This document shows positions 11,951-27,600 of a stretch of DNA of 47,142 nt, piece by piece. This stretch comes from Verrucomicrobiia bacterium (GTDB taxonomy: Bacteria > Verrucomicrobiota > Verrucomicrobiia > Palsa-1439): assembly GCA_041476745.1 (NCBI GenBank), contig JBGOTY010000001.1, forward strand, positions 1 to 47,142. Direction: 5' to 3'. The notes beneath the pieces were generated by a model, which searched no databases, was not told the origin of the DNA, and worked only from the letters and a program-made list of their open reading frames with translations. The position numbers and the translations under genes were made by a program. Each line of letters begins with the position of its first letter. Positions within the stretch are counted from its first letter, which is position 1.

Positions 11951-13270
11951 TTATTTCGCGGCCGCCACGCCGGTCACCTCGGCGTTGTCCATGATGACGG
12001 GAGGGCCTTGCTGGGCGGTGATTTGCACGTTTTTGAATTGAATGCCCTTGGCGTTTTGGATCTTCAGGCCCGTGGTGGCTGAAGAGATGTGGACGTTTTC
12101 CAGCGTGACGTCGGAAATCAGGCTTTCCGGCAAACCAATGATGATCCCCGCTGATTTCTGGCAGGTGGCTGTCAGGTTGCTGATGTGGATGTTCCGATAG
12201 ATCGGGGTCCCGGTGGCAACGGGCTGGGCGGTGTCTTTGGTGGGCTCGGATTTTTGCTTCGCGTCCCCGGCGGAGTTAAACATGTAGTAGCTGGTCAAGG
12301 TAATGGCCGGATCGACGTTCTTCATGGTAATATCGCTGTAGCTGATGCTCTCCACAATACCACCCCTGCCCCGCTGTGATTTGATGCGAATTCCGTTCTC
12401 GGTATTTTCAAACGTGCAGTTCCGCACCGTCACGTTGCGCACGCCACCGGCCGTTTCACTGCCGATCGACATCCCGTGTCCGTGCAAGAAAACGCAGTCG
12501 GTGACAGTGATATTGTCGCAAGCGAATGGACGTCCCGGCATGGCCTTACCGGCCTTGATGGCGATGTTGTCGTCACCCACGTCGATGTGGCACTTCGTGA
12601 TCACCACGTTCCGGCAGGCGCTGGGATCGATCGCATCGGTATTCGCCGCATGGGCGGGAGCGAGAACAGTCACGTTCGAAACAATCACGCCATCGCAATC
12701 CGTGGGCACAAAATGAAACTTGGGCGAGTTTTGCAGGGTGATGTTTTCGACGCGCAAATTCGTGCAGCCCGTCAATACGACCAGGTTCGGGCGTGGCAGC
12801 GTATAGCCCGGAGTCTTTTGCCGGGCAGCCTCCGCGGGGATCCACCACTTGGCGCCTGAACCGTCAATAATTCCTTGACCGGTAATGGTGACGTCGTGAA
12901 GTTTTTTCCCGCTCACAAACGGGATGAAGGAATTAGAAGTACTCCCGGCAAAATCAGCGGGATCATCCGTCGCCAACAGCGTCGCGCCGACGTCCAGTTG
13001 TACCGTGGTACTGCTGCGGAGGACAATCGGTTTGCTCAGGTACGTGCCGGCCGTAAAACGCACGGTACCACCACCGGCCTTCCCGCATTCATCGAGCGCC
13101 TTCTGGATCGCGTCTGTATCCAACGTTTTGCCATCACCCTTCGCACCCGATTCTTTGACATCGAATACCCGCGACGGTGCGTTGTCCGCCGGGCTGGTCT
13201 TGATGAACAACAATGCTAGCGATAGCATCCCCAGCGTCATCAGAAACGTAGTTTTTCGGTTCAAATTCAT
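11951..13270 (-). CDS. glycoside hydrolase family 28 (polygalacturonase-like), secreted
   Basis: 439 aa. Signal peptide. FDVKESGAKGDGKTLDTDAIQKALDECGKAGGGTVRF. GH28 catalytic blocks NTDAIDP, GDDNIAIKAG, GHGMSIGSE and GIRIKSQRGRGG. Confidence 0.92.
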   Translation of the reverse strand: MNLNRKTTFLMTLGMLSLALLFIKTSPADNAPSRVFDVKESGAKGDGKTLDTDAIQKALDECGKAGGGTVRFTAGTYLSKPIVLRSSTTVQLDVGATLLATDDPADFAGSTSNSFIPFVSGKKLHDVTITGQGIIDGSGAKWWIPAEAARQKTPGYTLPRPNLVVLTGCTNLRVENITLQNSPKFHFVPTDCDGVIVSNVTVLAPAHAANTDAIDPSACRNVVITKCHIDVGDDNIAIKAGKAMPGRPFACDNITVTDCVFLHGHGMSIGSETAGGVRNVTVRNCTFENTENGIRIKSQRGRGGIVESISYSDITMKNVDPAITLTSYYMFNSAGDAKQKSEPTKDTAQPVATGTPIYRNIHISNLTATCQKSAGIIIGLPESLISDVTLENVHISSATTGLKIQNAKGIQFKNVQITAQQGPPVIMDNAEVTGVAAAK

Positions 13271-13296
13271 TGGCAGCTCTCCTCATGTATTGTTAT

Positions 13297-14601
13297 TCAC
13301 GGTAGCGACAGATTGGCGACGCGCAGAGAGGCAGTAGCCTCTGAGGCGATGATCGCTCCGCCCCTCAAATCCACCCAACCAAGCACTCCTTCATGGCCCG
13401 AAGGAATCGCGAAGTTCAGCGTATCCGTTCCACTACCGGAAACGTAGTCGGCGACCGCGGTGGATTTCATGGCGAGTTGCGGTTTGCCTTTCACCGTGAC
13501 GTTCTCGCTGAAGACAACTTCGAACCGGCCATTTTGTTGCGTGATTTTCTTAATCGTCGGGCCAGCCCGGCGTTCGGGATCCCATTTTCCCGCGAACGTC
13601 CACGCTGCTGTAATCTGCTCGGGCGTTGGTGAATTCGTCGCCGAGGAAATGTTGTCCCGATGCCACGCATAGTCGCCGCCATCGCGATGGCAGTTGTAGA
13701 AGTAGGCGCGCTCCCCCCAGATGTTGCTGGCATCCAAATCGTGGTTTCGCTTGGTGTCCGCCTCGCTCGGCGTACCATGATTCAACGGATAGATGACTCG
13801 TAGCGGCGGTCGATTGCTGAGCGTCTTTGAGAAACTACAGTCCAGTAGGAAAAACTGGGCATCATGGTGATGGCGAGCCAGAATCCAGCTCGGCACGTTC
13901 CCTACCCCGTCGAACCGACAGTTGCGCAGGACGAACTTCATGTCCGCGTCCCTGCTGCCGTCATGCCAGATGGTCGCGTCCGCGTTGGGATTGACCTGGT
14001 GGAACTCGCAATCGGTCATATAGCACCAGCCGCGCGGACACACGAAGTCCACCGACCCACGGATATCGAGCCGCGCCTGATACGATCGTGTGCTCAGCCC
14101 CTTTCCCAGCGCCAGCGTGTCGGCCCCTTGACTCCAGACGTTGCAGTCCACGATCACCGTCTTGTCGGCCTGACCGAAAATGGCAAAGGCATGGGGGCCG
14201 ATAACGCCATGCGTGTTCTTGACCGTCAGGTTCTCCAGCACGAAATCGCCGCCGTTGATATTGATGACCGCGCGCCCGATCTTGTCCGGTCGATTGGTAA
14301 AATCATCGGCCCCTTGTGCGAACTCGATGCGGGTGCCCTGACGGCTCTGTCCACGAAGCGTAACGCAGTCCGGTTCAATCCGCACTTTCTCGTGGTACAG
14401 ACCGTCTTTGATAAAAATGATCGTCCGCTGACGGTTATCACGCGGGACAGCGTCGATCGCTTCCTGAACGGTCTTGAAATCCCCACTGCCGTCGCCTGAG
14501 ACGGTTAGATCAGGCCGGACGGCAAGAGCCGTCTTGTCCTCGGCGAGGACAAACCTGACGGAGACCAGAGCAATCAAAATGAACGCAAGAGCGGATCTCA
14601 T
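13297..14601 (-). CDS. pectinesterase-like (CE8 fold) protein with divergent active-site motifs and C-terminal extension
   Basis: Start reassigned to ATG 14601 (MRSALAFILIALVSVRFVLA signal peptide), which forms an ATGA overlap with the stop of the upstream CE8 gene. DGSGDFKTVQEAIDAVP and GLYHEKV match CE8. The QDT, DFIFG and LGRPW positions read GADTL, VDFVCP and LARHH. Confidence 0.8.
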   Translation of the reverse strand: MRSALAFILIALVSVRFVLAEDKTALAVRPDLTVSGDGSGDFKTVQEAIDAVPRDNRQRTIIFIKDGLYHEKVRIEPDCVTLRGQSRQGTRIEFAQGADDFTNRPDKIGRAVININGGDFVLENLTVKNTHGVIGPHAFAIFGQADKTVIVDCNVWSQGADTLALGKGLSTRSYQARLDIRGSVDFVCPRGWCYMTDCEFHQVNPNADATIWHDGSRDADMKFVLRNCRFDGVGNVPSWILARHHHDAQFFLLDCSFSKTLSNRPPLRVIYPLNHGTPSEADTKRNHDLDASNIWGERAYFYNCHRDGGDYAWHRDNISSATNSPTPEQITAAWTFAGKWDPERRAGPTIKKITQQNGRFEVVFSENVTVKGKPQLAMKSTAVADYVSGSGTDTLNFAIPSGHEGVLGWVDLRGGAIIASEATASLRVANLSLP

Positions 14602-15620
14602 TTGTTCGTCTTCGGATTCCACCCATCCGCACCGCCGAGTACCTTTGGTACGGTGACGGCCTCCGCTTCCACCTTGGTCAATTGACGCGCCCACGGCACA
14701 CGCGCTTGCGGATTCGCGCCGGGGCCGCTGCTGTTGAACTCGGCGTAGCGTGCGGTTTTCTCGCGGGTCGGGTCTTTCCAATTGTTCCAGCCCACGTTGG
14801 TCACGACGCCGGACATCTCCGTGTTCAGGTACGTCACGCTGGAAAATGCACGCCAGGGCCGGCCCAGATAGGTCCTCACGCCGGGCGATTCGCCGGTAAT
14901 CCTGCAATTCGAGAAGACGAAGCCGAAAGGATGTTCCTCCGGTGTCGAAGCAGCGGTGACGTAACCGTTCGACAGGCAATGAATGTGGCAGTTCTCGAAG
15001 AACGCGGTTGCGCCGCCGAAAATGAAATCAACGTGGCCCGCGATGTAGCAATTCTCAAAATACTGGCGGCCGCGGTTCACCAGGATTGTGTCCTGCCAGC
15101 CGAGGAAACGACAGTTGCGAAACACCACCCGGTCGCCATCCACGCGGATCGCCAAAGCCTGCCCGACGTGGCCCGCGGAGTTTTCGAAGGTGATGTTTTC
15201 CACCGTGAAATCGTCCGCATCGATCACGGTCGATGGCGTGCGAAACGTGCCGATCGGCTTGCCGTCCACACCCAAAAGTTTCGCGTTGAGGTCGTACGTC
15301 AACACCGTCTTCTCCGCCTCTTCACCAATGAGATGGACGTAACGTTTCTCGTGCTGAACATGAATCAACTCTTTGTAAACCCCCGGCTTGACGTGTATGA
15401 CGCAGGGATTGGTGGAACTGGCGCTCTGCGGCGTGGCGTTAATCGCTTCCTGAACCGTCTTGAACTGGTTGCTGCCAATCGTCGCGGCAACCAGATTCGT
15501 CTGCGCCACCACTGGTCGGCTGGTGCCAATGTCGACCAGCAAGAGCAAACACAATACGAAGATTAGCGCGGGCCGCGCCGAAAAGACATCTTGTCTCACC
15601 GTCCCCTCCTGTTCTGTCAT
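14598..15620 (-). CDS. pectinesterase (carbohydrate esterase family 8), secreted
   Basis: 340 aa. FKTVQEAINATP, GVYKE, GQALAIRV, GWQDTIL, HVDFIFGG and YLGRPW give the full CE8 motif set. The start overlaps the upstream GH28 stop by 1 nt (TGATG at 15618..15622). Confidence 0.93.
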   Translation of the reverse strand: MTEQEGTVRQDVFSARPALIFVLCLLLLVDIGTSRPVVAQTNLVAATIGSNQFKTVQEAINATPQSASSTNPCVIHVKPGVYKELIHVQHEKRYVHLIGEEAEKTVLTYDLNAKLLGVDGKPIGTFRTPSTVIDADDFTVENITFENSAGHVGQALAIRVDGDRVVFRNCRFLGWQDTILVNRGRQYFENCYIAGHVDFIFGGATAFFENCHIHCLSNGYVTAASTPEEHPFGFVFSNCRITGESPGVRTYLGRPWRAFSSVTYLNTEMSGVVTNVGWNNWKDPTREKTARYAEFNSSGPGANPQARVPWARQLTKVEAEAVTVPKVLGGADGWNPKTNK

Positions 15621-17218
15621 CAGTCCGCCGGACTGTTGACCTTAACCTTTTCCACCGCCGTCTTCGCCAGCTTCAGGTCGTTGCCTTCCAGCGTTACCTT
15701 GTCCGCTGAGTTTTCACTCACGCGCAGAAATGTTTCCGTTTCCGGCGGGGCCGTACAGCCATGCACAAACACGCCTTTAACCTTGTCCAGATCAATGATC
15801 GGTGTTCCCGGGTGCGGCTTTGTGGTCTTGACCCCATCGATCTCCAGTCCCTCGGTGTTCGTAGCCCTGATAAGCGGCCCGCTCTCGGTGTTGACCTGGA
15901 CATTGTGGAATTCGATGCCTCTGGCGTCCCTCAGCGTAAAACCGGTTTTGGTTTCGAGTCGGATGTCGTCAAACGTAATATTCTCGAGAGGCATTTCCTC
16001 CAGGCCGGTCAGTTCGCCGGCGGTCTTCGCGTCGCCGGTGATGCCACTGAAATGGATGTTGCGAAAGATAGGCGTACGCTCCGACACGGGCTCGGGTGTC
16101 GTTTTCGTATAAAACGTTGTCAACAGAAACGCTTCGTCGCGGATATTTCGCATCACGATATTGCTCACGCGAATGTCCTCGATCACACCACCACGGCCAC
16201 GGGTGGATTTGATGCGGATGCCGCGATCGGTGCCGTCGAACACGCAATTGGCTACCGTGACATTCTTCACGCCGCCGGACATCTCACTACCGATCGACAG
16301 ACCGTGGCCTCGCAGCAGCGTGCAATTCACAATCGTGCAATTCTCCAGCGGCCGCCCGGCGCGCCGCCCGTTAGCGTCGCGGCCCGATTTGATGGTGATG
16401 CAGTCGTCTCCCACGCTGATGTAGCAATCGGAGATGCGAATATTGCGGCAGGAATCGGGGTTGATGCCGTCCGTGTTGGGCGACGTCGAGGGACTGATGA
16501 TGGTGACGCCACGGACGTTGACATTCTCACAAAAGACCGGTGTGACATTCCAAAATGGCGAGTTCCGGATCGTAACACCTTCGACCAGCACGTTACTGCA
16601 TTCATTCGGCTGGATGAATGGCGGCCGCAGGAAGCCGATGTCGAGCAGCCGGTAATTCAACTCGGCGATCGTGTCTTTGTTCAGGCGGCTGAACTCTTCC
16701 TGCCATTTGGTGCGCGGCACCGCATTGGTTCCCCGTGAAATCTTGCGGTAGAAGTCCCACCACGCCTGGCCCTGTCCGTCGAGCGTGCCCCGTCCGATGA
16801 TGGCGATGTCCTGCGCCTTGTAGGCATAAATTAACGGCGAGAAATTCGTCACGATGATTCCTTCCCACCGCGACAGCACCATCGGCAGGTAATCGTCGAA
16901 GTTGGTGCTGAACTTCAGCGTCGCGCCTGCATCCACGTAGAGAGTGATATGGCTCTGGAGGTGAATCGGGCCGGTCAGATACGTGCCGGCGGGAAAATAC
17001 ACCGTCCCGCCTCCTTTGGCTGAGGCCGCGTCGATGGCTTTGCCAATCGCTTCGGTACATTTCGCCTGCCCGTCCGGCAAGGCGCCAAAACTGAGAACAT
17101 TGAAGAAGCCAGCTGTGGGCGTCGTTTGCGCCACCACCATGGATGCGAAGACGATCCCCAAGGTCACCGATAGCATGGCTGCAATGCGACATGGAGTTGA
17201 TCGTATGATTTGTTTCAT
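15620..17218 (-). CDS. glycoside hydrolase family 28 (exo-polygalacturonase-like), secreted
   Basis: 532 aa. Signal peptide. FNVLSFGALPDGQAKCTEAIGKAIDAASAKGGGTVYFPAGTY. NTDGINPD, GDDCITIKSG, GHGLSIGSE and GIRIKSTRGRGG. Confidence 0.92.
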   Translation of the reverse strand: MKQIIRSTPCRIAAMLSVTLGIVFASMVVAQTTPTAGFFNVLSFGALPDGQAKCTEAIGKAIDAASAKGGGTVYFPAGTYLTGPIHLQSHITLYVDAGATLKFSTNFDDYLPMVLSRWEGIIVTNFSPLIYAYKAQDIAIIGRGTLDGQGQAWWDFYRKISRGTNAVPRTKWQEEFSRLNKDTIAELNYRLLDIGFLRPPFIQPNECSNVLVEGVTIRNSPFWNVTPVFCENVNVRGVTIISPSTSPNTDGINPDSCRNIRISDCYISVGDDCITIKSGRDANGRRAGRPLENCTIVNCTLLRGHGLSIGSEMSGGVKNVTVANCVFDGTDRGIRIKSTRGRGGVIEDIRVSNIVMRNIRDEAFLLTTFYTKTTPEPVSERTPIFRNIHFSGITGDAKTAGELTGLEEMPLENITFDDIRLETKTGFTLRDARGIEFHNVQVNTESGPLIRATNTEGLEIDGVKTTKPHPGTPIIDLDKVKGVFVHGCTAPPETETFLRVSENSADKVTLEGNDLKLAKTAVEKVKVNSPAD

Positions 17219-17296
17219 ATTAATCGAAATCTTACCCTTCTTTGAAAGAGATTGTCATCGTCTCCCACCACTGCCCCTTCCCCTCCGAGCACTTTC

Positions 17297-20200
17297 CTAC
17301 GGCACCAGCCGAATCCGATAAAAGCGGGATGGAACATTCGTTGCGGCCCCGCCATCCACATAGTTGGTCGTTACATCCCCAATTCCCAAGATGATGAGCG
17401 GCCCGCTCAGATCCGAGAAGTTCGTCGTGTAACCGCCATTTGCATCCGCCGGCGCGGCCTGCACGGCATTCGTGAACCCGCCCGCCGTCGTCCACGTGAT
17501 CACCACGTCGTTGCTTTGTTGAGCCGCGCAGACGATCCGAAACGCCGAGGCCGTGTTGGTCGGGTTCGTGCCCGACAGGAACTCCGCCAGGTTGTTCTGG
17601 CCATCGCCGTCCGGGTCCGCGTTGGGATCGGCATTGGGATTGTTCGTCGAGTTGAAGTACAGTGTCTGCCACTGTTGGAACGCAGTCAACGGGGGCGTGA
17701 CCACGGGCGTTACGTGCACACCGAAAGCATTGGTCCGGGTGCTGCCATCAGCGTCGGTGACTGCGAAGGAAAAACCACCCAATCCGTTGGTGCCCGGCGT
17801 CGGCGTAAACTGCGCGGTCTTGCCATCTCCGAGTATGGCGACCGTTCCGAGCATCGGGCTGAACACCGAGTATATGGCTAGATTCGTGAAACCGAGGGCG
17901 TACTGGCTCAGGTCGACACTAACCGATGAATCTTGCGCGCAAGTCACGTGCGGCGCAGCCAGCCAGTTCAGGTAATCCTCCAGGTTCGAATAGCCATCGC
18001 CATCCGGGTCGGCGTTGCTGTCGGAGAAATCGCCCGGCGCCGAGTTGGGGTTGGTGCCGTGCAGCACTTCCCACCAATCGGGCAAGCCGTCGTGATCGGA
18101 ATCCGCATCGACGTTGTAGGTGTTATACTGCGGCCAGGGATAATTCGGCGAATTCGTGGCAACGTCGTGGACATCGGTCGGCGAATCGATGATGCCGGGA
18201 CGGTTGGGTCCAACCTGACTCGGTTGGAAGACTCCGTTGATAGTGTAGGTCGGACCATTGGTGCCGATGTAGTGGACCGTCTTGTTGAGGGTTTCCCGGA
18301 TAATGCGTTGGTCAATCACATCCGCAGCGGGAAGATTGCAGCCGACATCCGACAACACGCTCTTGAACGCATCGCGGGCGGTCTGAGTCGTCACATACGG
18401 CGGAAAAACCTCCACATTGGTTCGCACACTTGCCAACTGGTTGGAGTTGGCATAGCTGTCGCTTCCGTTCGAGACGTACACGGCGGTACCAAACTGCCAG
18501 TTGTTGGAGCCGTAGTTCTGGCCCTCCATGACATTGCCGTCGAAGAAATATGATTCTGTCCCCCAGACGGGATTGATGGCATCGAGCCGGAACAACCACT
18601 TCACAACGTACGAGGCGTTGGTGTAGGGCTTGTAGTAGTTGTTGACGTAGTTGGCCCGCTGCACGCCGCCGTCGGTGGTGCGCGAGGTCCAGTTGTACAC
18701 GACGTTGTTGCGGAGATCGAGCGAGCCGGCGTAGTGGGAGCTTTGATCCAGCCCGCCGGCCAGACTCCAGTTCCGGCCCGTGCAATGGGCGATAAGGTTG
18801 TGGTGATAGCTGCCAATCTCGCCGCTAATCGAGCCGGCAAACGAATGGGGTTGATAGCACTGCGTGCAGCCATTCGTCGCTCGCTGGGCATCGTCGTAAT
18901 GGTACGAATGATCCAGGGCTTCGGAAATGATGTTGCGCTGGAACGTAATGTTCGCCGAGCCGCTACCAACCGCCCCGCTCTGACGCGAGCTGGTCGATTC
19001 GTCAATCGTCCAACCGATTGTGCAGTGGTCGATAATGGAATCGCTCGAGTTGCCGAGCCCAATCCCGTCCATCGACTGCTGGCTGGCTTCGCCAAGCCGT
19101 AGCCGGATGAACCGCATGATCACGTCACTGCAACTGCTCATCCCCGCCCGCCAGTTGCTCAGGCAAATGCCATCTCCCGGGGCGGTCTGGCCGGCTATGG
19201 TGAGATAACCGTTGGGGTTGTTGATCGTGCACGGTCGCTTGAGCTTGATCAGACCGGACGCGCGAAATACGACAGTTCGCGGACCCGTAGATTCAATGGC
19301 GGCGCGGTAACTTCCGGGAATGACCGCTTCACCCAAGGTGGTGTCATAATCGTTCGTGTTTGTAACCTCAATCACCACTCCGCCGCGCCCCCCGCGCGCG
19401 AAGCGTCCGTATCCTTCCGCGCCCGGAAACGCGAGATGACGGGTGCGGAACCGCCAAACATCGCCTTTGGCCACGGTGTTGGTTATGTCCACCTCGTCGA
19501 CGCGCCAATAGTACGTCAGGGCGCTGTCGAGATTCGTGGCCGTGTTCCAACTATTCGTCGTGAAGCTGCCCTTGAACTCGGGCGAGGCGCGGGTCGCCGT
19601 ATTGACGGAATTGCTGCTTGTCCCAAAATAAACATCGTTCGTGACAGCAGCCACAGAGGGGATCCAACTGAGCGTGGTGTAGCCGGTTCCAGCCGAAGCG
19701 GGAATGGGGTCGTCATTATGTGCGAAGACGTGCTCATCGCCGTCACCAGGAACGGCCCCCACAGACGTGGAGCCGGGGAATTTACCGTCGATCTCAAAAC
19801 CGTTGAGCATGACAAAATCCAGGTTGTTCGTGCTGCTATGGTCGGGATCAAAACTAACCTCCATGGGCTGGTCGGCAACTGCCGTGACGGGAAAGTAGGC
19901 AAAACCACACTTGTAATCATTGGTCGCGTAATAGGATGGCGTGTTGGTATACAGCGGAACGCCATCCACACTGACCACACAATGGCTCATGAAATGATTG
20001 GTTCCGTGCCAAAGGGGGTTGGTGTTGACATGATTGCCATACACGTCATTGTGGTACGTAGTGATCGTGTGCGCGCCAGGAGAAAGGTTGGAAATGATCA
20101 AACAAAAAGCGCCACCGTTCGTGTAGGGGATGGTGACGGGAGAAGTATACTGCACCCACATCGCATCCTCCGACAGCCGGTAGCCAACATTGGGGTCGCT

Positions 20201-20518
20201 GCTACTCGAGCTATCATCGCCATCCTTGTTACCCCAATCGGCCCTGAAGCCCGTACTCGCCGTACCGAATACTGGAACAGTCTGGGAGACCGTGCACGAG
20301 ATAATGCGGCCGACGACATTGGTAAAATTGCGCGTGGCTTTCTGATTAGCCACATCAGGCCATGGCAGAAACCCTGGCTTGGTGGAATTCGCCTTTGCTT
20401 CGCCATTCTTGTTGATATCGACCTGCAACAATTCGGGTTCCGCGTGCGAGAGTTGTGACGCAAAACACGCCAGAGCAACAATGCCAAACGTCAGGTATTT
20501 CTTTTGCATCGCTCTCAT
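17297..20518 (-). CDS. multidomain secreted pectate lyase (PL1-like): unknown N-terminal domain, WRVDEV-type beta domain, PL1 catalytic domain, TSP3-like Ca-binding repeats, conserved C-terminal RFYRIRLVP module
   Basis: 1073 aa. Signal peptide ...ACFASQLSHA. HLAFPGAEGYGRFARGGRGG...YLTIAGQTAPGDGI...IRLRLG...DGIGLGNSSDSIIDHCTIGW is characteristic of PL1 pectate lyases (about nt 18329..19441). DADSDHDGLPDWWE and ADPDGDGYSNLEDYL. C-terminal module at nt 17300..17707. Confidence 0.9.
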   Translation of the reverse strand: MRAMQKKYLTFGIVALACFASQLSHAEPELLQVDINKNGEAKANSTKPGFLPWPDVANQKATRNFTNVVGRIISCTVSQTVPVFGTASTGFRADWGNKDGDDSSSSSDPNVGYRLSEDAMWVQYTSPVTIPYTNGGAFCLIISNLSPGAHTITTYHNDVYGNHVNTNPLWHGTNHFMSHCVVSVDGVPLYTNTPSYYATNDYKCGFAYFPVTAVADQPMEVSFDPDHSSTNNLDFVMLNGFEIDGKFPGSTSVGAVPGDGDEHVFAHNDDPIPASAGTGYTTLSWIPSVAAVTNDVYFGTSSNSVNTATRASPEFKGSFTTNSWNTATNLDSALTYYWRVDEVDITNTVAKGDVWRFRTRHLAFPGAEGYGRFARGGRGGVVIEVTNTNDYDTTLGEAVIPGSYRAAIESTGPRTVVFRASGLIKLKRPCTINNPNGYLTIAGQTAPGDGICLSNWRAGMSSCSDVIMRFIRLRLGEASQQSMDGIGLGNSSDSIIDHCTIGWTIDESTSSRQSGAVGSGSANITFQRNIISEALDHSYHYDDAQRATNGCTQCYQPHSFAGSISGEIGSYHHNLIAHCTGRNWSLAGGLDQSSHYAGSLDLRNNVVYNWTSRTTDGGVQRANYVNNYYKPYTNASYVVKWLFRLDAINPVWGTESYFFDGNVMEGQNYGSNNWQFGTAVYVSNGSDSYANSNQLASVRTNVEVFPPYVTTQTARDAFKSVLSDVGCNLPAADVIDQRIIRETLNKTVHYIGTNGPTYTINGVFQPSQVGPNRPGIIDSPTDVHDVATNSPNYPWPQYNTYNVDADSDHDGLPDWWEVLHGTNPNSAPGDFSDSNADPDGDGYSNLEDYLNWLAAPHVTCAQDSSVSVDLSQYALGFTNLAIYSVFSPMLGTVAILGDGKTAQFTPTPGTNGLGGFSFAVTDADGSTRTNAFGVHVTPVVTPPLTAFQQWQTLYFNSTNNPNADPNADPDGDGQNNLAEFLSGTNPTNTASAFRIVCAAQQSNDVVITWTTAGGFTNAVQAAPADANGGYTTNFSDLSGPLIILGIGDVTTNYVDGGAATNVPSRFYRIRLVP

Positions 20519-20521
20519 CCC

Positions 20522-23500
20522 CTAGGGCACGAGCCGGATACGGTAATAACGCGACGGACTGTTGGTCGCGCCGCCGTTGTCGACGTAATTGGTCGTCGCA
20601 TCTCCGCTGCCGGAGATGATAACCGGGCTGCTGATATCCGTGAAGTTGGTCGTGTAGCCGCCGTTCCCACCGCCCGCCGTCGCTTGCACAGCGTTGGTAA
20701 ACCCGCCAGTCGTCGTCCATGTGATCATCACATCATTGTTTTCCCGCAACGCGGAGACAATCCGCAGCCCCGATGCGCTATTCGTCGGATTGGTCCCCGA
20801 GAGGAACTCCGCCAAGTTGTTCTGACCATCGCCATCAGGATCCGCGTTGGGATCGGCGTTGGCGTTGGTCGTCGACCCGAAGTACAGGACCTGCCATTGC
20901 TGGAATGCGGTCAGCGGCGGCGTGACGACCAGGTTCAACTGTCCCGGCGTGCTCGTGTCGATCGCGTATACGTGGCCGGTTGGCGCCGTACCGATGCTGA
21001 CCCCGTTGTATGTCAGTGTGCCGCCGTAGGTGAACAGCGTGTACGTGTTGTTGGTGAAACCACCGGCATCGGTGACGTTGAGCGTGCCTCCCAGGGTCAG
21101 ATTGCCGCTCACCATCGTCCGATCGCTGTTTGCGCCCAACTCGTATTGCAACACTGTGTTGCTATTGATGATCACATTATTGCTAATCGTCAGTGTGCCG
21201 GGACTATTGCCGGGCGCCTCCGTGCCGTTCACAGTCACCGGTCCGACAATGATACCACCGCCACCCAGTGCCGCGCCGCTGACGACCGTGACCGCGCCGA
21301 CGCCCGTTCCGCTGCCGGTAGTGTTATTGACCAGAAGCGTGCCACTGTTGGAGACAACGAGCGGCCCACTAAAGCCCAAGCTATCACCTCGCAGCGTCAG
21401 CTGGCTGTTCGCCGGCAGGTTAAGAGTCAGCGCACCGGAACCGCTGAACACACCCTTGAATGTGTTGCTACCACTGGTGAGGGCCAGCGTACTGGCGGAA
21501 GACACATTGAGGCCGTTGGAGAAAGTCACGGAGGTCTGGCTGAACGTCAGGGTGCTGCCGCCGAGCGTGATCGGACCGCTGCCGAGCATGTTGGTATCGG
21601 TGATCGTAGCCTGCGTGTTGAAGAAGCTCAGGTTGTTGTTGGTCCCCGCCTTCACCAAGCCGCCCAACGTCACGACATTGACGGCCGGTGCCGAGTTCGA
21701 GACCACGACTTCCGCATTATAAAGCGTCAGCGTGTTGGTGCTGCTGGGCGCAGTGAGATTGGAGTCGATGATCCGAATACTCCGTGCGTTATAGATGTCA
21801 AAAGTCTTGGTGGGGGCCGTAAAATTCACGTTGTACAGAGTGACGTTGGAAACGACCATCTCCTGGCGTCCCCACAGGATGCCCGCGATATTATTGCCCG
21901 CGGTTGCTGTCACCGTGAGATTGCTGAAGAGGATGTTGCGCCAGATGGGCGTATTATCAACAATCGGTTGGGCTGCGAACGCGGCGGCGTTGGACGGAGT
22001 GATATTGTTGGGCGTCCCGATGGAGTCGTAGAAACTGTAAACAATGATCGGGTAATCCACATTGGTCATCGTGATGTCGATGTACCGGAGGTTCTCGACC
22101 AGCCCGCCGATGTCCCGGTCGGATTTCAGACGGATCCCGTTATCCGTGCCATTGAACGTGCAATTGCTAACCAGCAAATCATGCACCCCGCGTTGCGTGG
22201 GACTGCCGATGGACACGCCATGCCCGGTGCCGAAAGTGCAATTCGAGACGGTCATGTCCGCCACGGTAGCCGCGCTGCTTCCCATCTGAATATTGTCGTC
22301 CCCGACACTGATGAAACAGTTTTGGACCAAAACGTTGGTCGAGCCCACGTCCATACCGTCCGTATTGGGTGAATTCCCCGGGGTGTTTTCCGTGATGTTT
22401 TGAATGGTCAAACTCACGTTGTTACCCTTGAGCAGCATATGAAACACCGGCGGGTTCTGCAGCGTCACACCCTGAATCAGAACGCGGGTGCAACCGCTGA
22501 AGTCGATCATGTGCGGGCGCAGCGATTCGTCGAGTGTGGGGGATTGCCACCAATTCGTGGAGCCGAAGCCAGCATTCCCATCGATGGTTCCCGATCCGCT
22601 GATTTCGATATCGTTTTGGCCGGATGCACTGATGAATGGCGGCAGACTCGGGCTGGGCCAGTTGGTAACGGTGGCGGTGGCGACACGCGGGAGCATTTTC
22701 AGCGTCGCACCGCTGTCGATCTCCAGATTGATGCTGCTGGAAAAGATGATCGGACCACTCAGGTACGTGCTGAGTGTGCCCGCCGCCGGCACGATGACGG
22801 TACCGCCGCCGGCCCCGGCTGCAGTATTGATCGCGCTTTGAATTGCCGCGGCATTGTTCGAAATACCGTCCCCCAGCCCACCGAAGTCCAGGATGTTGAA
22901 GGTGTTGGTGGGAATCACCGGCAGCGGCGGCGTCCGGGGTAGCACCGTAAGAGTTGCGTTCGAACTGGAAGTCGAGCCGGCTGCATTGCTCGCGATAAGG
23001 GTATAGGTACCCGCGTCAGTCAATTGGAGGTTGGGCAGGTTTACCGTGGTGGAAGTGGCGCCGGCAATCGGCGCCCCATTGGCATTCCACTGGTAGGCGA
23101 TCGGCTGAGTCCCGATGGCGGCTCCGCTGAAGTTGGCCTTGTCGCCAACCCGCGCGGTAAGCGCGGCCGGTTGCAAGATGAATATCGGCGCCACGGGATT
23201 GGTATTGACGGTCAGGACGGCGTTGGAGCTGGCGGCGGTGCCGATCGGATTGCTGACGATGACGGAATAAATGCCCGCGTCGCCGGGTTGCACGTTGGAA
23301 ATCGTCAAGGTGCTGGACGTGGCATTCGTCAGCAGCGAATTCGTGTTGTAGTACCACTGATAACTCAATGGTTCACTGCCGACGGCCACAACGCTGAATG
23401 CGGTGGGTTGCGTCGGAATGACGGTCAGGTCTTGCGGTTGGGTAGTAATTGTCGGAGCGGCTTCGGACACCGTCAAGTTCGCCACCGCGCTTGTCGCCGA

Positions 23501-24661
23501 GCCGGAGAAATTCGTCACGATGACAAAGTAGCTCCCGACGTCCGTCAGTTGGACGTTCGTGAGCGTCAACGAGGGATTGGCGACGGGCGTGTGCGCGGGC
23601 GGGAAATTGACGGTGGAGGCAGCGCCGACGGGTGTGTTCGTGTCATTGAAATACCATTGGTAGCTCAGTGGCAACGTACCATTGACGACCGCGCTGAACG
23701 TGGCGGTCTGCCCCGAAGAAAGCGCCTCGTCTTGCGGTCCCGTGAGAATCGCAGGAGCCACGGGCGCCGAAGTCACCTCGACCTTTACCTCTTGGAACAG
23801 GTTGGTGGCGGGCGCCTGCGAGTTATTGGCCGGACGAAACTCGATCGTGTCGAAGCTGAAATTGGTCGCCACATTGTCGGCTGTGGAGAGGGAAAGCGTC
23901 GCGCCGTTGGCGAGGTTCGACCAGGTCATGGCAATCGCCATAGAACTCAGATTCGTGCGTTGCAGAAGGATCTGGAACGTGTATTGCGTCAGGTTGCTGA
24001 AACCGGCAAACGTATTGGTGAGGCCGCCTTTGGCCAACGAAGTGTAGTCGGCACTGGCGCCCAGCAGGGAAGCGTCCGCGATATTGGTGCGTTTGCGAAT
24101 GTCAATCGGCTGGTTGTCAGCGAAGGCCCCATACATCTTCTGGAACAACGCATATCCTTCCACGAACGTTCCCTGGCCACCGCTGCTGAACGGAGACCCG
24201 TCCGCGGTCACCCGCTTGGGGACGTTGCTTCCGTCAGCGGAATCGAACAAGCCAATCTTGAAGCCCTGCGAACTGCTGCCAACCGGTGGTACTCCATTGA
24301 ACGTGAATCGGAAGGTCGCGGCCAACGTGTCCCCGACATTCAATTGCACGGGAGGCGTGTTGCTGTTGGCAGTGAAGTAGGTAATGCCCGCGCCGGAGCT
24401 TGCGCCGACGACCATGCGCAGCGCACCGCCCGAAACACTCAAGGACCCTGTGCTCGACGCAAACCACGCCGACCTTGTTGGCAGACTCTGGGTTCTGCGT
24501 GTGGCCGTTGTCCAAGCCGTCTGGTCAAGTAGAACGGTGGCGCGAACGGGCAAAGCCAGGCCAACCAGGGCTGCGAGAATAAGAACAGCTTTATGTCGGC
24601 ACTCCGCTTTTATGCTCGCGTCTCCATCTCTGTTCTCGAGGGAATCAAGGTGTCGGCTCAA
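20522..24661 (-). CDS. giant secreted protein: unknown N-terminal jelly-roll-like domain, 3 Ig-like repeats, GH28 polygalacturonase domain, autotransporter-associated beta-strand (PATR) repeats, conserved C-terminal RYYRIRLVP module
   Basis: 1379 aa. Ig repeats (PLSYQWY.N.., PIAYQWNANG; nt ~22937..23764). GH28 blocks NTDGMDV, GDDNIQMG, GHGVSIGS and GIRLKSDRDIGG (nt ~21782..22909). PATR-like LTLGGSTLTF...GALTLNL...GTLLVNN...APGNSPGTLTISNN...GGTLNV (nt ~20942..21664). C-terminal module at nt 20525..20929. The ATG at 24661 overlaps the upstream stop by 17 nt, so the true start may lie slightly downstream. Confidence 0.9.
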   Translation of the reverse strand: MSRHLDSLENRDGDASIKAECRHKAVLILAALVGLALPVRATVLLDQTAWTTATRRTQSLPTRSAWFASSTGSLSVSGGALRMVVGASSGAGITYFTANSNTPPVQLNVGDTLAATFRFTFNGVPPVGSSSQGFKIGLFDSADGSNVPKRVTADGSPFSSGGQGTFVEGYALFQKMYGAFADNQPIDIRKRTNIADASLLGASADYTSLAKGGLTNTFAGFSNLTQYTFQILLQRTNLSSMAIAMTWSNLANGATLSLSTADNVATNFSFDTIEFRPANNSQAPATNLFQEVKVEVTSAPVAPAILTGPQDEALSSGQTATFSAVVNGTLPLSYQWYFNDTNTPVGAASTVNFPPAHTPVANPSLTLTNVQLTDVGSYFVIVTNFSGSATSAVANLTVSEAAPTITTQPQDLTVIPTQPTAFSVVAVGSEPLSYQWYYNTNSLLTNATSSTLTISNVQPGDAGIYSVIVSNPIGTAASSNAVLTVNTNPVAPIFILQPAALTARVGDKANFSGAAIGTQPIAYQWNANGAPIAGATSTTVNLPNLQLTDAGTYTLIASNAAGSTSSSNATLTVLPRTPPLPVIPTNTFNILDFGGLGDGISNNAAAIQSAINTAAGAGGGTVIVPAAGTLSTYLSGPIIFSSSINLEIDSGATLKMLPRVATATVTNWPSPSLPPFISASGQNDIEISGSGTIDGNAGFGSTNWWQSPTLDESLRPHMIDFSGCTRVLIQGVTLQNPPVFHMLLKGNNVSLTIQNITENTPGNSPNTDGMDVGSTNVLVQNCFISVGDDNIQMGSSAATVADMTVSNCTFGTGHGVSIGSPTQRGVHDLLVSNCTFNGTDNGIRLKSDRDIGGLVENLRYIDITMTNVDYPIIVYSFYDSIGTPNNITPSNAAAFAAQPIVDNTPIWRNILFSNLTVTATAGNNIAGILWGRQEMVVSNVTLYNVNFTAPTKTFDIYNARSIRIIDSNLTAPSSTNTLTLYNAEVVVSNSAPAVNVVTLGGLVKAGTNNNLSFFNTQATITDTNMLGSGPITLGGSTLTFSQTSVTFSNGLNVSSASTLALTSGSNTFKGVFSGSGALTLNLPANSQLTLRGDSLGFSGPLVVSNSGTLLVNNTTGSGTGVGAVTVVSGAALGGGGIIVGPVTVNGTEAPGNSPGTLTISNNVIINSNTVLQYELGANSDRTMVSGNLTLGGTLNVTDAGGFTNNTYTLFTYGGTLTYNGVSIGTAPTGHVYAIDTSTPGQLNLVVTPPLTAFQQWQVLYFGSTTNANADPNADPDGDGQNNLAEFLSGTNPTNSASGLRIVSALRENNDVMITWTTTGGFTNAVQATAGGGNGGYTTNFTDISSPVIISGSGDATTNYVDNGGATNSPSRYYRIRLVP

Positions 24662-27600
24662 AAATCACAAACCCGCTGGCGCTGTTCCCGAGGAAGTATC
24701 CGGCTCCCGTGCCATCCGGTTGCAGCACCAACCCGTTGAAATTCACCGTTTTGCCCAGCACCGGATGCGTGAAACTCCCGCTGAACTGTCCCGTCCTGGT
24801 CTGGATTTTCATCTGCAGGTTCTCCGTGTTCGGCGGCGGGACGATCACCGCCCCGACATCCGTGACCTGCACCGTCTCCACGATGCTACTGGCCAGATTG
24901 CCACCGCCCAAGGTCACCTGTCGATTCCCTGCGGCACTCGGCCCGCTCTCCGTCGGCGAGAGGTACCTCTCCCCCAGCAACGTCACGTTGGTCGTGAAGC
25001 CAGCCGGGAAATAGTGCGAACTTGACATCCGGGGTCGGAACCAGTCCACCGTCGCTCCGACCGAACTGTTGGTCCCGAACGTCATCCACCCGATCGACGC
25101 GCCCTGGCTGTTGTACAGCGCTTGGTACAGCGGGAACGTGCCATGCTTGGACAACGGCACCCGAATGTTGATCTTCGTTCCATCCGCCAGCACCCCGCTC
25201 ATGCGCCCGAGTCCGGTGGGCGTGACCTTCAAGATTCCGTAACCGAATCCTTCCGGAAGGCTCGGGTCGTTCCCCTCGGGCGGTTGTAGCACCACCGTAA
25301 AGCTGCCGGCCAACGGGCAGCGAGCGATGGCGCTGAATACCTGACGGTCCGCCAGCACCTCCGAGGTGAACCCGTCCACAGAGATGCTCCCGCGGATCTG
25401 GTCGGTGCCTTCGGTCAGGTCCAGATGCAGGATCACCCGCAAGGAATTCAGCCCGATGCGTGTCACCAGATTCGTCGCATTGCCGGAAGCATCAAACTGT
25501 CCCTTGAAGACGCTGCGCACTCCCCCCAGGCTCAGGCTGGCGGCAAACGGCCCATTCTTGCTGACCAGCAGTTTGATCGACCCCGAACTGGCATGGGAGG
25601 GCGCATTGGTTTGGATCGCCAGGCCGTTGTACCGACCCAACGCTGGTACCGCTGTGACGAACGTCTGGGCACAGGCATCGGCGCTGGGCGCCGACACATG
25701 CCCGAGTTCATCCTGGGCGGCGACGGCGTAGCAATACACCGTTTTGGCCGCCAGACCGCTGTCGGAATACTTGGTGTTGGCCGTTGTCCCAATCAGCTCG
25801 CCGTCACGGAACACCCGGTAGCTGGCCAGACCCGAGCCACCATCATGGGACAGTCCGCTATCGCTGGAGGCGCTCCAACTCAGATCGATCCGGTTGGTGG
25901 CAATGGTCCTGGCCGTAAGCCCGACCGGCACCGACGGTGGATTGTTGTCCACGATCACGCAGTTGGTGGCGGAACTGCCCACGTTACCCGCGGGGTCATA
26001 CGCCCTGGCGTAAAAGCAGTGAGAACCGTCGGCCACGGTGGTCGTGTTGAAGTTCACACTGTACGGTGGCGTAGTGACGGTACCCAGCAGAAGGTTACCG
26101 TCCCGGTAGAGCTCCACCTTCGTGACGGCGACATCATCCGTCGCGGTCGCGCTGACAGCCACGGTGCCGCTCACGACGCCGGAGGCCGGCGCGGTCAGTA
26201 CGACAGTCGGAGCGGTGGTGTCGCCAGCCTGAGTCACCGTGAAGGTCTGTCCAGCAATGGTCATCGTCCCCACGCGCGGACTGCTGGTACTGCCGTTTGG
26301 CAGGACGGTGTAGGCGACAGCGGCATTGCCGGTGGCGCTGACGCTGCCACCGGTAATCTGGATCCAACTGTCGTTGCTGACGGCGGTCCACGGGCAGGTA
26401 TCCGCTGTGGCTACAGCCACGCTACCAGTCCCACCCGTGTCGCCGAGGCTCGCGTTCGTCGCGGAGAGCGTGTAGCCGCAAGTGACCGTGATGTAATTGA
26501 CCTGCGTGTTGGTGCTCGATCCACCGGGACCGCTGACGATTTCCGTTACGCTATAAACGCCTCCTGTGTTGTAGGTGTAGAGCACGCTGTTGGTCGTAAC
26601 ATTGGTCGTGCCGCCGTCGCCGAAGCTCCAGAACCAATTGGTGATAGGACCGCTGGACGTGTCCGTAAAGGTCACGGTCAGCGGGACTGCGCCGCTGGTC
26701 GGACTGCCGATAAAACTGGCCACTGGTGCAGCCACGGGGACTGGGATGGTGTAATCGGCCACAATCGGCAGGTGATCACTGGCGGTGCTGAGGTCCTGGT
26801 AAAGCTGCGCGGCGCTGATCGGCGCACCCGCGACAAGATTGTTGCTTAGCGATGTATTCGAACCGGAGTTCACGCTGCCGAAGTAAGGAGTCGTCCCATT
26901 GTTCCCAAACGCATGATACGTACCGGGAACGTACGCCAGCCCACCGGCCACGCCGTAAAAAACATTACTCGTCATGACCTGCAAATCGTCCCGGAAGCGA
27001 AGGTCGTTGGCCGATTCGGTTTCCGCCGCCAGAATGGCCGGATCCGTAGTACTCGTACCCCAATTGATGTTCGTAGCGCCCGACAGGTTGAGCGGGTCGA
27101 AACCCTGGCCTTGCGCCACGCCGTTGGGCGCGCTGTTCGAGAGAATTGTTTGGTACGATGGTTCGCCGCTGCTGGTGATGTTGAAGTCGCCCACGTAAAG
27201 CACCCGGGCGTCGACGGGCAGGCTGCTAGCTTCGTCATTGCGGATGATCACGGCTTCGCCAGCGCGTTTGGCGATGTTGGTAACACCCACGCCGGATTTG
27301 TAGTGGCTCACATAGACGTAAAACTCGTTCGCTGCCGCCGGTGTCACGCCCGCCGGCGCAAACTCGTACCGCATCACCTCGCGATACTCGCCACTGGTCG
27401 CGCCCAGGCAGTTGGTGCCGCAAGCCGGATCCACCGGGACAGAAGCGAGAAGCTGCACGGTCTTCGTGTTGTAGACCATCGCGTTTGGGCCGTTCCCACT
27501 GGCGAGGAAGCCGCCGCTCTCCGTAGCCTGGTAGGGGCTCATCGCATACATGTTGGTCGCGGCCGGATCCAACATGCTATAGAAAGCATTCAGGCCATCC

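Follow-up and report, generated by a model that had tools for sequence, protein, structure and literature searches.

A C-terminal beta-sandwich module as a candidate surface-targeting or anchoring tag of exported proteins in Verrucomicrobiia

Background

Three minus-strand genes in a 47,142-nucleotide stretch of a Verrucomicrobiia genome (GenBank assembly GCA_041476745.1, contig JBGOTY010000001.1; referred to here in its entirety as the window) encode secreted proteins whose upstream parts are mutually unrelated, and which nevertheless share a homologous C-terminal module of approximately 130 residues. This raises the question of what such a module does at the end of such different proteins. 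An earlier note, made from the sequence alone, had proposed an undescribed sorting or anchoring domain. Most likely, the module is a candidate surface-targeting or anchoring tag shared by exported proteins.

Results and discussion

Three module-bearing genes

The carriers in the window were as follows:

17297..20518, minus strand: pectate-lyase-like protein gene (1073 aa, secreted; open reading frame and translation)
20441..20518, minus strand: signal peptide of the pectate-lyase-like protein, MRAMQKKYLTFGIVALACFASQLSHA (read off the sequence)
20522..24661, minus strand: Ig-GH28 protein gene (product of at most 1379 aa, the exact start being uncertain; a GH28 polygalacturonase domain combined with three Ig domains)
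28161..30776, minus strand: beta-helix repeat protein gene (871 aa counted from a TTG start)

Signal peptides were present on all three, with the segment KAVLILAALVGLALPVRA resembling one in the Ig-GH28 protein and ...TRFLAAIALGIALTLSAHA in the beta-helix repeat protein, which in the public record (P0269) starts at 30743 and has 860 aa. The PL1 label previously given to the first product agreed with a local NCBIfam PelZ match (E 4e-22), but was without a Pfam hit; upstream of the module this protein also contained an additional TSP3 repeat (Pfam TSP3_bac, residues 806-827) and Pfam Big_9 (residues 857-930). The second product matched Pfam Glyco_hydro_28 (E 3e-47) as well as I-set/Ig_3, and the PATR label once attached to it had no match at E<=0.1. 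Two of the three carriers are pectinases, and the same pectin cluster holds other GH28 and CE8 enzymes that do not have the terminal domain.

Architecture of the module

Each copy is built from a short helix (pattern W-x3-YF/YG), one TSP3-type calcium loop and a beta-sandwich of 78-84 aa ending in R(F/Y)YRIRLVP-stop, the final strand of which, R-(F/Y)-Y-R-(I/V)-R-L-V-P, is the usual C-terminus of the protein. As described earlier, three homologous tails stand directly before stop codons, on a strand (minus) that had been left unstated, and the identical runs quoted for them were found in the translations:

17300..17707, minus strand: copy 1, whole module (last 136 aa of ORF 17297..20518)
17300..17551, minus strand: copy 1 beta-sandwich (84 aa, ASAFRIV...RFYRIRLVP; stop 17297..17299 directly after; translation)
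17552..17707, minus strand: copy 1 linker (helix LTAFQQWQTLYF and TSP3-type calcium-loop motif DPNADPDGDGQNNLAEFLSGTNPTN; translation)
20525..20932, minus strand: copy 2, whole module (end of ORF 20522..24661)
20525..20776, minus strand: copy 2 beta-sandwich (84 aa, ...RYYRIRLVP; stop 20522..20524; translation)
20777..20932, minus strand: copy 2 linker (helix and TSP3-type loop, near-identical to copy 1; local NF042425 match)
28164..28541, minus strand: copy 3, whole module (end of ORF 28161..30776)
28164..28397, minus strand: copy 3 beta-sandwich (78 aa, subtype TWTMGSGKTNAVQ...FTVTNTVG; stop 28161..28163; translation)
28398..28541, minus strand: copy 3 linker (helix GIRNAWKQQYGFDPF and TSP3 loop DADGDGFSNLQEYLAGTDPTN; translation)

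Copies 1 and 2 were 77% identical in amino acid sequence, and copy 3 was 52-55% identical to either. A six-frame scan of the window with a beta-domain profile matched exactly these three ORFs at E 1e-33 to 1e-41 (6e-40, 1e-41 and 2e-33 for copies 1, 2 and 3, respectively), each match reaching the last residue, with nothing further below E 0.9, a result far beyond chance. The Ca-binding-like motif reported for the tails could be recognised visually and from local matches to NCBIfam models (NF042425 positions 126-152 in copy 1, and 95-158 at E 2e-13 in copy 3, which also matched the MtsD TSP3 region), but the Pfam TSP3 model fell below its cutoff for copy 3 (TSP3_bac, 19.8 bits; cutoff 25), and no match to it was reported in the modules of copies 1 and 2. 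AlphaFold2 modelled the copy 1 beta-sandwich with a pLDDT of 93.8 and the whole module with a pLDDT of 87 (helices H13-22 and H43-49). As proposed, there is no transmembrane helix: the 19-aa hydropathy maximum of the module tails was 0.7-1.0, whereas the PEP-CTERM tail at 30985, one of two neighbouring PEP-CTERM tails that proved genuine, reached 1.96.

Comparison with described families

The beta-sandwich had no model match in Pfam-A 2025 or NCBIfam 20.0, no sequence match in the PDB and, at E<1e-3, no fold match there, which bears out the claim of an undescribed domain. None of the CBM, dockerin and PPC models matched among 40 family members scanned, and the T9SS CTD was absent from the top 50 Foldseek matches. 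A weak fold resemblance was seen to CBM21, fn3 and GH3 accessory domains (TM 0.4-0.6, E>=0.05), and the modelled sandwich is predicted to be Ig/fn3-like. The terminal domain is a new, uncatalogued family specific to Verrucomicrobiia. It is homologous to other, internal TSP3-linked beta domains (hhalign probability 97.6%, E 3.5e-12) and falls within a broader family whose TSP3-plus-beta units end in FYR. Since these homologous domains sit internally, the fold can do without a free C-terminus and may serve as a structural or binding unit of a general kind.

Distribution and C-terminal position

At 50% identity, the family comprised 2,292 clusters matching at E<=1e-3, with 1,609 of them reaching E<=1e-10. 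A genome scan gave 378 confirmed matches, the top 73 loci all deriving from Verrucomicrobiia MAGs. At least 22 such MAGs contained the domain, with copy numbers rising to 16 or more per MAG; in seven MAGs, the fetched loci alone accounted for 9-16 distinct copies each. The hosts are uncultured soil and peat Verrucomicrobiia, and no cultured carrier organism was found.

Among 148 representatives, taken from the best 150 of the 2,292 matches, the domain ended at the last residue in 135 (91%), and RLVP was the terminus of 98. Of 120 genomic copies at the 73 loci, 104 (87%) ended at the stop codon and 116 lay at most 3 residues from it. The position-locking that had been proposed thus holds for the large majority of these copies, but 18 of the 148 representatives (approximately 12%) also had internal copies, the TSP3-plus-beta unit being repeated two to three times. 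Identity between paralogues was 50-85%, and 40 of them shared nearly invariant polar residues (W20, T27, N28, F45, N63, Y64, D66, G68, A70, T71, N72, P74, R76, Y78, R79 and R81), a pattern that would fit one common ligand or partner. The dN/dS of 0.10 between copies 1 and 2 shows the module to be under purifying selection.

Cargo and secretion signals

Unrelated passengers with signal peptides, as noted for the window, were seen well beyond it. The 58 carriers analysed contained 41 Pfam families, including GH28, PL1, PL9, GH5, GH30, RGL11, S8 peptidase, LamG, PKD, Ig and PATR, and the cargo was not coherent in substrate (S8 peptidase, NHL and LamG proteins, beta-helix repeat proteins). Some carriers had N-termini similar to that of the protein encoded at 24645..27926 of the window. 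Signal peptides were present in 59 of 93 representatives starting with M, and most of the other 34 begin mid-domain and look truncated. Neither of the two outcomes named in the earlier note as speaking against its reading was found: matches were not mostly internal or cytoplasmic, and the domain did not correspond to a described one with a non-sorting role.

Homologues of the beta-helix repeat protein carry T5SS/PEP-CTERM-associated repeats, with TIGR04393 ('T5SS/PEP-CTERM-associated repeat') above cutoff both in proteins ending in the domain (P0274, P0296) and in proteins ending in PEP-CTERM (P0323, P0342). Among 87 such homologues, 68 had the terminal domain, about 11 had related FYR/FFR-type tails and 6 had PEP-CTERM. 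The terminal domain alternates with PEP-CTERM in the same slot on homologous passengers.

The gene neighbourhoods of the 73 loci contained no non-cargo neighbour recurring in more than 4 loci, and prepilin-type neighbours were rare near carriers. In the window, no specific machinery gene was found, only a SurA-like chaperone.

Proposed function and rival explanations

Because of its near-constant terminal position on exported enzymes and adhesin-like proteins, the module is a good but unproven tag candidate. The best explanation, put forward tentatively and at somewhat short of even chances, is that it is a folded address or anchor domain by which one shared envelope partner holds unrelated cargo at the cell surface. 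Cargo would cross the inner membrane via Sec, using the N-terminal signal peptide; the terminal beta-sandwich would then be recognised by a single shared envelope partner (a protein or surface glycan), which would direct this otherwise unrelated cargo, enzymes as well as adhesin-like proteins, to the cell surface or keep it there, with the TSP3 loop serving as a calcium-stiffened spacer. The module would therefore be an address or anchor domain, functionally parallel to the PEP-CTERM tails of the same genome and similar in logic to T9SS CTDs, dockerins and SLH domains. The binding of a partner, the location at the surface and the part played by calcium are what we infer here. The sorting or anchoring reading of the earlier note gains from the domain being undescribed, terminal and in the PEP-CTERM slot; internal copies, the wider FYR family with its homologous internal domains and the failure to find a machinery gene weaken a pure sorting-signal version of it.

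Such a version, in which the module genuinely signals outer-membrane export (tagging cargo for a Verrucomicrobiia secretion or attachment machine as yet undescribed, in the manner of the T9SS CTD, and perhaps being removed after translocation), appears unlikely. The exact terminal position and conserved final strand, the high copy number within a genome, on CAZymes, proteases and adhesin-like proteins bearing Sec signals, the restriction to Verrucomicrobiia and the alternation with PEP-CTERM all speak for it, but internal copies occur in 12% of carriers, neither a T9SS CTD model nor the top 50 Foldseek matches provided a link, the surroundings of cargo genes showed no candidate machinery, and the paralogue identity of 50-85% lies far above what would be expected of T9SS CTDs. 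Also in favour of an export signal is a 2026 paper (PMC13524802) that proposes, on an AF3 model only, a CTD of T9SS type together with 'a comparable system' in the verrucomicrobium Akkermansia. An accessory domain of the ordinary kind (a module that binds a carbohydrate or substrate, or an Ig-like spacer with a structural role), common at C-termini only because duplication adds the TSP3-plus-beta unit there, is doubtful, though a little less so. Internal and tandem copies, homologous internal domains, the weak likeness to CBM21, fn3 and GH3 accessory folds, conserved polar loop residues compatible with a glycan or calcium site, and the two pectinases among the window carriers are consistent with it; against it stand the lack of substrate coherence, the failure of CBM and dockerin models to match any of the 40 members scanned, the pectin-cluster GH28 and CE8 enzymes without the domain, and an identical terminal residue in 87-91% of copies, which a binding module standing on its own would not be expected to show.

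A PPC-like pro-domain at the C-terminus, or an intramolecular chaperone, aiding folding or export and then clipped off, is improbable: the small beta-sandwich is terminal on secreted hydrolases, including an S8 peptidase, but it matches neither PPC (PF04151) nor any other Pfam model, is found also on non-enzymatic repeat proteins and occurs internally. Least credible of all are DNA repeats kept by or for recombination and cassette swapping between neighbouring genes. Copies 1 and 2 do lie in direct orientation with stop codons 3,225 bp apart, as the suggested spacing of 3.2 kb implied, and carrier genes in related MAGs form co-directional tandem arrays. However, to call the two copies 'clearly similar' as DNA was an overstatement (75% nucleotide identity, longest exact run 17 nt), and with a saturated dS of about 1.4 the two are old and well diverged at synonymous sites; these values, and a dN/dS of 0.10, contradict the recombination reading. 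Conservation of the copy 3 subtype in different metagenomes (P0036, P0044 and P0050 are examples) indicates vertical maintenance and not local conversion.

Relation to known systems

The address or anchor domain proposed here resembles the type A T9SS CTD of Bacteroidota (TIGR04183 / PF18962), likewise a folded beta-sandwich (approximately 80 aa) that forms the very C-terminus of proteins exported by Sec, present in dozens of copies per genome, restricted to a single lineage and carried by CAZymes, proteases and adhesins. It differs in lacking any match to that domain in sequence and any specific one in structure, in the TSP3 calcium loop that usually stands before it, in its internal and tandem copies and in a paralogue identity much above that expected of T9SS CTDs; machinery and cleavage are not known for it, and no T9SS is known in Verrucomicrobiia. 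The PEP-CTERM/exosortase signal (TIGR02595 / PF07589) takes the same place at the end of homologous passengers with T5SS/PEP-CTERM-associated repeats, and both tail types occur in the window, but it is tripartite and approximately 25 aa long (motif, TM helix, basic tail), whereas the module is soluble, folded, approximately 130 aa long and without a hydrophobic helix. Dockerin type I and SLH domains are similarly conserved, mostly C-terminal modules on unrelated enzymes, with a calcium-binding motif, occasional multiple copies and a high conservation consistent with one common partner; neither model matched, the fold is a beta-sandwich and not an EF-hand-like helical pair, and no cohesin-like partner was found. 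The PPC domain is also a small C-terminal beta-sandwich of secreted hydrolases, but shows no sequence match, and the cargo range of the module is far wider and includes non-enzymes. With the TSP3 repeat (PF18884) and the Amuc_1099 family (NF042425) the module shares the linker motif DxDGDGxxNxxE(F/Y)LxGT(D/N)P, but this match is confined to the linker (model positions 95-158, up to 181 in P0274), the beta-sandwich being without a hit. Only 60-80 positions of the 321-position Amuc_1099 equivalog align, and the NCBI name 'Amuc_1099 family' for the 933-aa homologue P0278 is probably an over-call.

C-terminal tails of three window proteins

Three otherwise unrelated proteins in the window were proposed in the earlier note to share a homologous tail, and ORF translation, alignment and a profile scan all agreed with this. 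All three translations end in R(F/Y)YRIRLVP, directly followed by the stop codon:

17297..20518, minus strand: pectate-lyase-like protein, 1073 aa, with a PelZ-like (PL1) region and a Big_9 domain (tail: copy 1)
20522..24661, minus strand: Ig-GH28 protein, 1379 aa (longest ORF), with three Ig domains and a GH28 domain (tail: copy 2)
28161..30776, minus strand: beta-helix repeat protein, 871 aa, with a passenger that has no Pfam match (tail: copy 3)

Compared across their final 126-136 residues, copies 1 and 2 show 77% identity, and copy 3 shares 52-55% identity with either one. When the six-frame translation of the window was scanned with a profile of the terminal domain, exactly these three ORFs were matched (E 1e-33 to 1e-41), and there was no further match in the window at E < 0.9. 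N-terminal signal-peptide-like segments were present in all three carriers. With its start at the TTG at 24661, the longest ORF of the Ig-GH28 protein overlaps by 17 nt (24645..24661) with the 3' end of the upstream gene, whose stop lies at 24645; the true start is probably downstream of that TTG, closer to the hydrophobic segment KAVLILAALVGLALPVRA.

The genes for the PL1-like and Ig-GH28 proteins are the last two of a co-directional pectin-degradation cluster (11951..24661, minus strand) and the only ones in it to carry the module; the other genes of the cluster are:

11951..13270, minus strand: GH28
13297..14979 and 14598..15620, minus strand: two pectinesterases
15620..17218, minus strand: GH28

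One locus of the genome scan (L012, MAG MFD03346.bin.1.96) appears to be syntenic with this cluster.

Copies 1 and 2 differ by a dS of about 1.4 (saturated), with a dN/dS of 0.10 and a longest identical DNA run of 17 nt, and are therefore old paralogues under protein-level selection. The recombination or domain swapping between them that the earlier note had envisaged did not hold up, recombination and gene conversion both being rejected on the dS and the short shared run, and it is scarcely credible that the module as such is a recombination repeat.

Anatomy and predicted fold of the module

The module consists of a linker of 48-52 aa, made up of a W-x3-Y(F/G) helix and one TSP3-type loop (D-x-D-G-D-G-x-x-N-L-x-E-F/Y-L-x-G-T-N/D-P-T-N), followed by a terminal domain of 78-84 aa. 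AlphaFold2 predicted the terminal domain alone to be a compact beta-sandwich (pLDDT 93.8, pTM 0.81), and the whole module to have two helices and the loop packed ahead of this sandwich (pLDDT 87). Resemblance to catalogued families in Pfam and NCBIfam was confined to the linker. The TSP3 motif is visible in the linkers, which gave local NCBIfam matches to the TSP3 regions of NF042425 and MtsD; TSP3_bac (PF18884, 22 positions) matched copy 3 at 19.8 bits, below its 25-bit cutoff, and was not reported for the modules of copies 1 and 2, while a precomputed PF18884 match is present on several homologous fragments. In some members the TSP3 loop is absent upstream, the sandwich following a HYR domain (homologue P0091) or an ELWxxDGT repeat (homologue P0118), and the sandwich is thus an independent unit.

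The terminal domain was not covered by any Pfam-A or NCBIfam model in the three whole proteins or in 40 diverse members, and these members gave no consistent match even at E<=10. A sequence-profile search of the PDB returned only noise, and Foldseek against the PDB gave nothing at E<1e-3 with either the domain model or the whole-module model, the best matches being generic small sandwiches (DUF1425, Cj0090, fn3 and CBM21; TM 0.3-0.6). The likeness to fn3/Ig domains consisted of weak Foldseek matches (E 0.05-0.5, TM 0.3-0.6), with no fn3 match in Pfam. Comparison of 40 paralogues showed mostly polar residues to be nearly invariant (T27, N28, N63, D66, T71, N72, R76, R79 and R81), along with W20, F45, Y64 and Y78; such conservation suggests a common ligand or partner.

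Family size, position and hosts

An initial homologue search yielded only fragments of <150 aa, apparently owing to a bias in the choice of candidates, and architectures were taken instead from an exhaustive profile search over 1.84 billion representative proteins. This gave 2,292 terminal-domain matches at E<=1e-3, 1,609 of them at E<=1e-10. The C-terminal position lock seen in the window also proved to hold outside it: among 148 new sequences within the best 150 of the 2,292 matches, 135 have the domain running to the last residue and 145 have it stopping no more than seven residues short of the end, with RLVP as the final residues in 98. In a search covering one genome for each GTDB species, 378 matches were confirmed, and the top 73 loci belong to 22 MAGs of uncultured Verrucomicrobiia sampled from peat, palsa and soil. 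Of 120 near-complete genomic copies in these loci, 104 run right up to the stop codon and 116 to within three residues of it. Up to 16 distinct copies were found per MAG, counted in the fetched flanks alone. Co-directional tandem arrays of carrier genes are common in the 73 loci; three or four consecutive carrier genes occur in L003, L004, L030, L035, L036, L056 and L072, a pattern that points to local expansion among cargo genes. Literature searches on Verrucomicrobial C-terminal domains, on its motif strings and on Amuc_1099 did not find the domain described. The terminal domain constitutes a genuine and widespread family that still has no name.

Position is not absolute: in 18 of the 148 representatives, one or two further copies lie internally, as complete TSP3-plus-sandwich units, including the RFYRVRLAP strand, with more protein after them. 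Divergent TSP3-linked domains ending in FYR, none with a Pfam match, were also seen in neighbouring genes and internal regions. As these are homologous to the window domain (profile-profile probability 97.6%, E 3.5e-12), the latter is best described as a mainly terminal clade within a broader family of repeatable units. Both the internal copies and the FYR-type relatives count against a purely terminal signal.

Cargo

Among 58 carriers, 41 Pfam families were found. The cargo includes GH28, pectate lyases (PL1 and PL9), GH5, GH30, RGL11, chondroitinase-B-like and apiosidase-like enzymes and an S8 peptidase, as well as NHL, LamG, PATR, PKD, Ig and repeat proteins; the cluster names of 10 carriers refer to the passengers only. 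By a crude hydropathy test, signal peptides were present in 59 of 93 representatives starting with methionine; the remaining 34 mostly start within a domain and seem to be truncated.

In the copy-3 protein, the motif Q(T/N)NSW..G.WE...NWSLG.P stands right after the signal peptide (about 30530..30575, minus strand), and the same motif occupies this place in homologues P0122, P0130, P0160, P0194, P0211-P0215, P0225 and P0265. Since many carriers have it, proteins of the copy-3 type form a family that is conserved at both ends, with variable beta-helix repeats between.

Relation to PEP-CTERM, T9SS and Amuc_1099

When homologues of the copy-3 passenger were searched for with the tail removed, 68 of the 87 recovered end in the terminal domain, about 11 in related FYR/FFR-type tails and 6 in PEP-CTERM, and the 'T5SS/PEP-CTERM-associated repeat' (TIGR04393) scored above cutoff in homologues with either the terminal-domain or the PEP-CTERM ending. 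Because homologous passengers carry either tail, the terminal domain fills the architectural slot of recognised sorting or anchoring tails. The two are nevertheless different in kind. PEP-CTERM comprises a PEP motif, a hydrophobic TM helix and an Arg/Lys-rich tail in about the last 25-30 aa, whereas the module ends in ...RFYRIRLVP; the maximum 19-aa hydropathy was 0.7-1.0 in the tails against 1.96 in the genuine PEP-CTERM tail at 30985, and none of the three window carriers matched TIGR02595 or PF07589. As stated in the earlier note, the tails lack a TM helix and a basic end and the neighbouring PEP-CTERM tails are genuine; the module is accordingly not a PEP-CTERM-type signal. Genuine PEP-CTERM proteins coexist with the terminal domain both in the window and in related loci, and the two probably specify different fates.

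The module resembles the T9SS CTD in position, size, fold class, cargo and copy number, each being a folded beta-sandwich (~70-100 aa for the CTD) at the extreme C-terminus of signal-peptide cargo. No match to the type A (TIGR04183/PF18962) or type B (TIGR04131/PF13585) models was obtained with the three full proteins and 40 members at E<=10, and no T9SS CTD was among the top 50 Foldseek matches of either the domain or the whole-module search. We know of no T9SS in the host phylum of the module. The system has been described as confined to Bacteroidota/FCB (PMC5445135, PMC12398890), and its solved CTDs (RgpB, HBP35, PorU and PorZ) are 3+4 Ig-like sandwiches (PMC11285876). The nearest item in the literature is a 2026 report in which the last domain of Akkermansia Amuc_0953, modelled with AF3, resembles a T9SS CTD and 'a comparable system may exist' (PMC13524802); the terminal-domain profile did not match the PDB chains from that work.

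Against the Amuc_1099 equivalog model (NF042425, 321 positions, cutoff 50 bits), whole proteins scored 17-47 bits, in alignments limited to model positions 95-158 (up to 181), that is, to the linker and first strand. The isolated 146-aa copy-3 tail reached 50.9 bits, over W..QYG and the TSP3 linker only (28398..28541, minus strand). Membership of this equivalog was ruled out, there being no full-length match at >=50 bits. The NCBI name 'Amuc_1099 family pilus-like system protein' on a 933-aa homologue (P0278) is likely to be a linker-based over-annotation; alternatively, Amuc_1099 may itself contain a related TSP3-plus-beta unit.

Genomic neighbourhood of the carriers

All-against-all clustering of 583 ORFs from the 73 loci and the window revealed no non-cargo family in more than four loci. 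Recurrent neighbours were sugar-metabolism or catabolic enzymes, transporters and a few prepilin-type N_methyl proteins, the latter with no obvious enrichment by motif count. Prepilin-type genes (N_methyl, some DUF1559) adjoin carriers at L008:3217-4071, L050:2071-2844, L022:6462-7178 and L062:3638-4471; at about 7 among the 583 ORFs they are too few for an association. The rest of the window (Mo-hydroxylase, SurA-like chaperone, CNNM transporters, anthranilate synthase and an MmeI-like restriction-modification enzyme) yielded no candidate machinery. The last of these genes adjoins the surface-protein cluster:

34963..38466, minus strand: large MmeI/Eco57I-type single-polypeptide restriction-modification enzyme (Eco57I, TaqI_C, N6_Mtase and MmeI domains)

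Possible function and significance

We class the module with the known C-terminal cargo and anchor domains, and tentatively favour its being a shared folded address or anchor module, which would add partner binding and surface localisation to the terminal position, paralogy, cargo diversity, purifying selection and alternation with PEP-CTERM tails observed here. Sec would export the cargo, and a shared envelope partner would recognise the sandwich and so position or hold the protein at the cell surface; the TSP3 loop would serve as a calcium-dependent spacer. An ordinary binding or structural accessory domain is a less probable reading; it is consistent with the internal copies and repeatable relatives, but a carbohydrate-binding module would be expected on enzymes acting on one class of substrate, and here the cargo is mixed and CBM or dockerin families were absent from the Pfam matches of 40 domain members at E<=10. 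A cleaved pro-domain appears very improbable for this tail.

Rather doubtful, in our estimate, is a genuine export tag for an as yet undescribed secretion system. The likeness to the T9SS CTD speaks for it, and the neighbour clustering, with no recurrent non-cargo family, does not. Equally doubtful is the reading in which the sandwich tags CAZymes and adhesins as cargo for an outer-membrane secretion or attachment system still to be discovered in soil and peat Verrucomicrobiia, a functional counterpart of the Bacteroidota T9SS. If so, a secretion or anchoring route would be added outside that system, with a link to the T9SS-like CTD suggested in Akkermansia.

Verrucomicrobiia are abundant polysaccharide degraders of soil and peat, mostly uncultured, and we know of no established route by which their very large enzymes reach the outer membrane or the space beyond it. 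The interest of the domain lies in offering a testable way into their secretion and surface display. Marking 9-16 or more secreted proteins per genome, it could be used to predict which proteins of these MAGs are secreted or at the surface and could serve as a handle for finding partners or machinery through phylogenetic profiling, and a new Pfam/NCBIfam model could replace 'hypothetical protein' and mis-assigned 'Amuc_1099 family' names.

A second C-terminal region in the window

A second position-locked C-terminal region of about 336 aa, with no Pfam match, is common to the otherwise different proteins at 24648..27926 and 5049..7277 (both minus strand; 49% identity, E 9e-89), which end in ...G(Y/L)FLG...SGFV...P(T/S)P-stop. 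The same ending was also found on neighbours of carriers in two MAG loci (L018:6476-10711 and L047:6476-10375).
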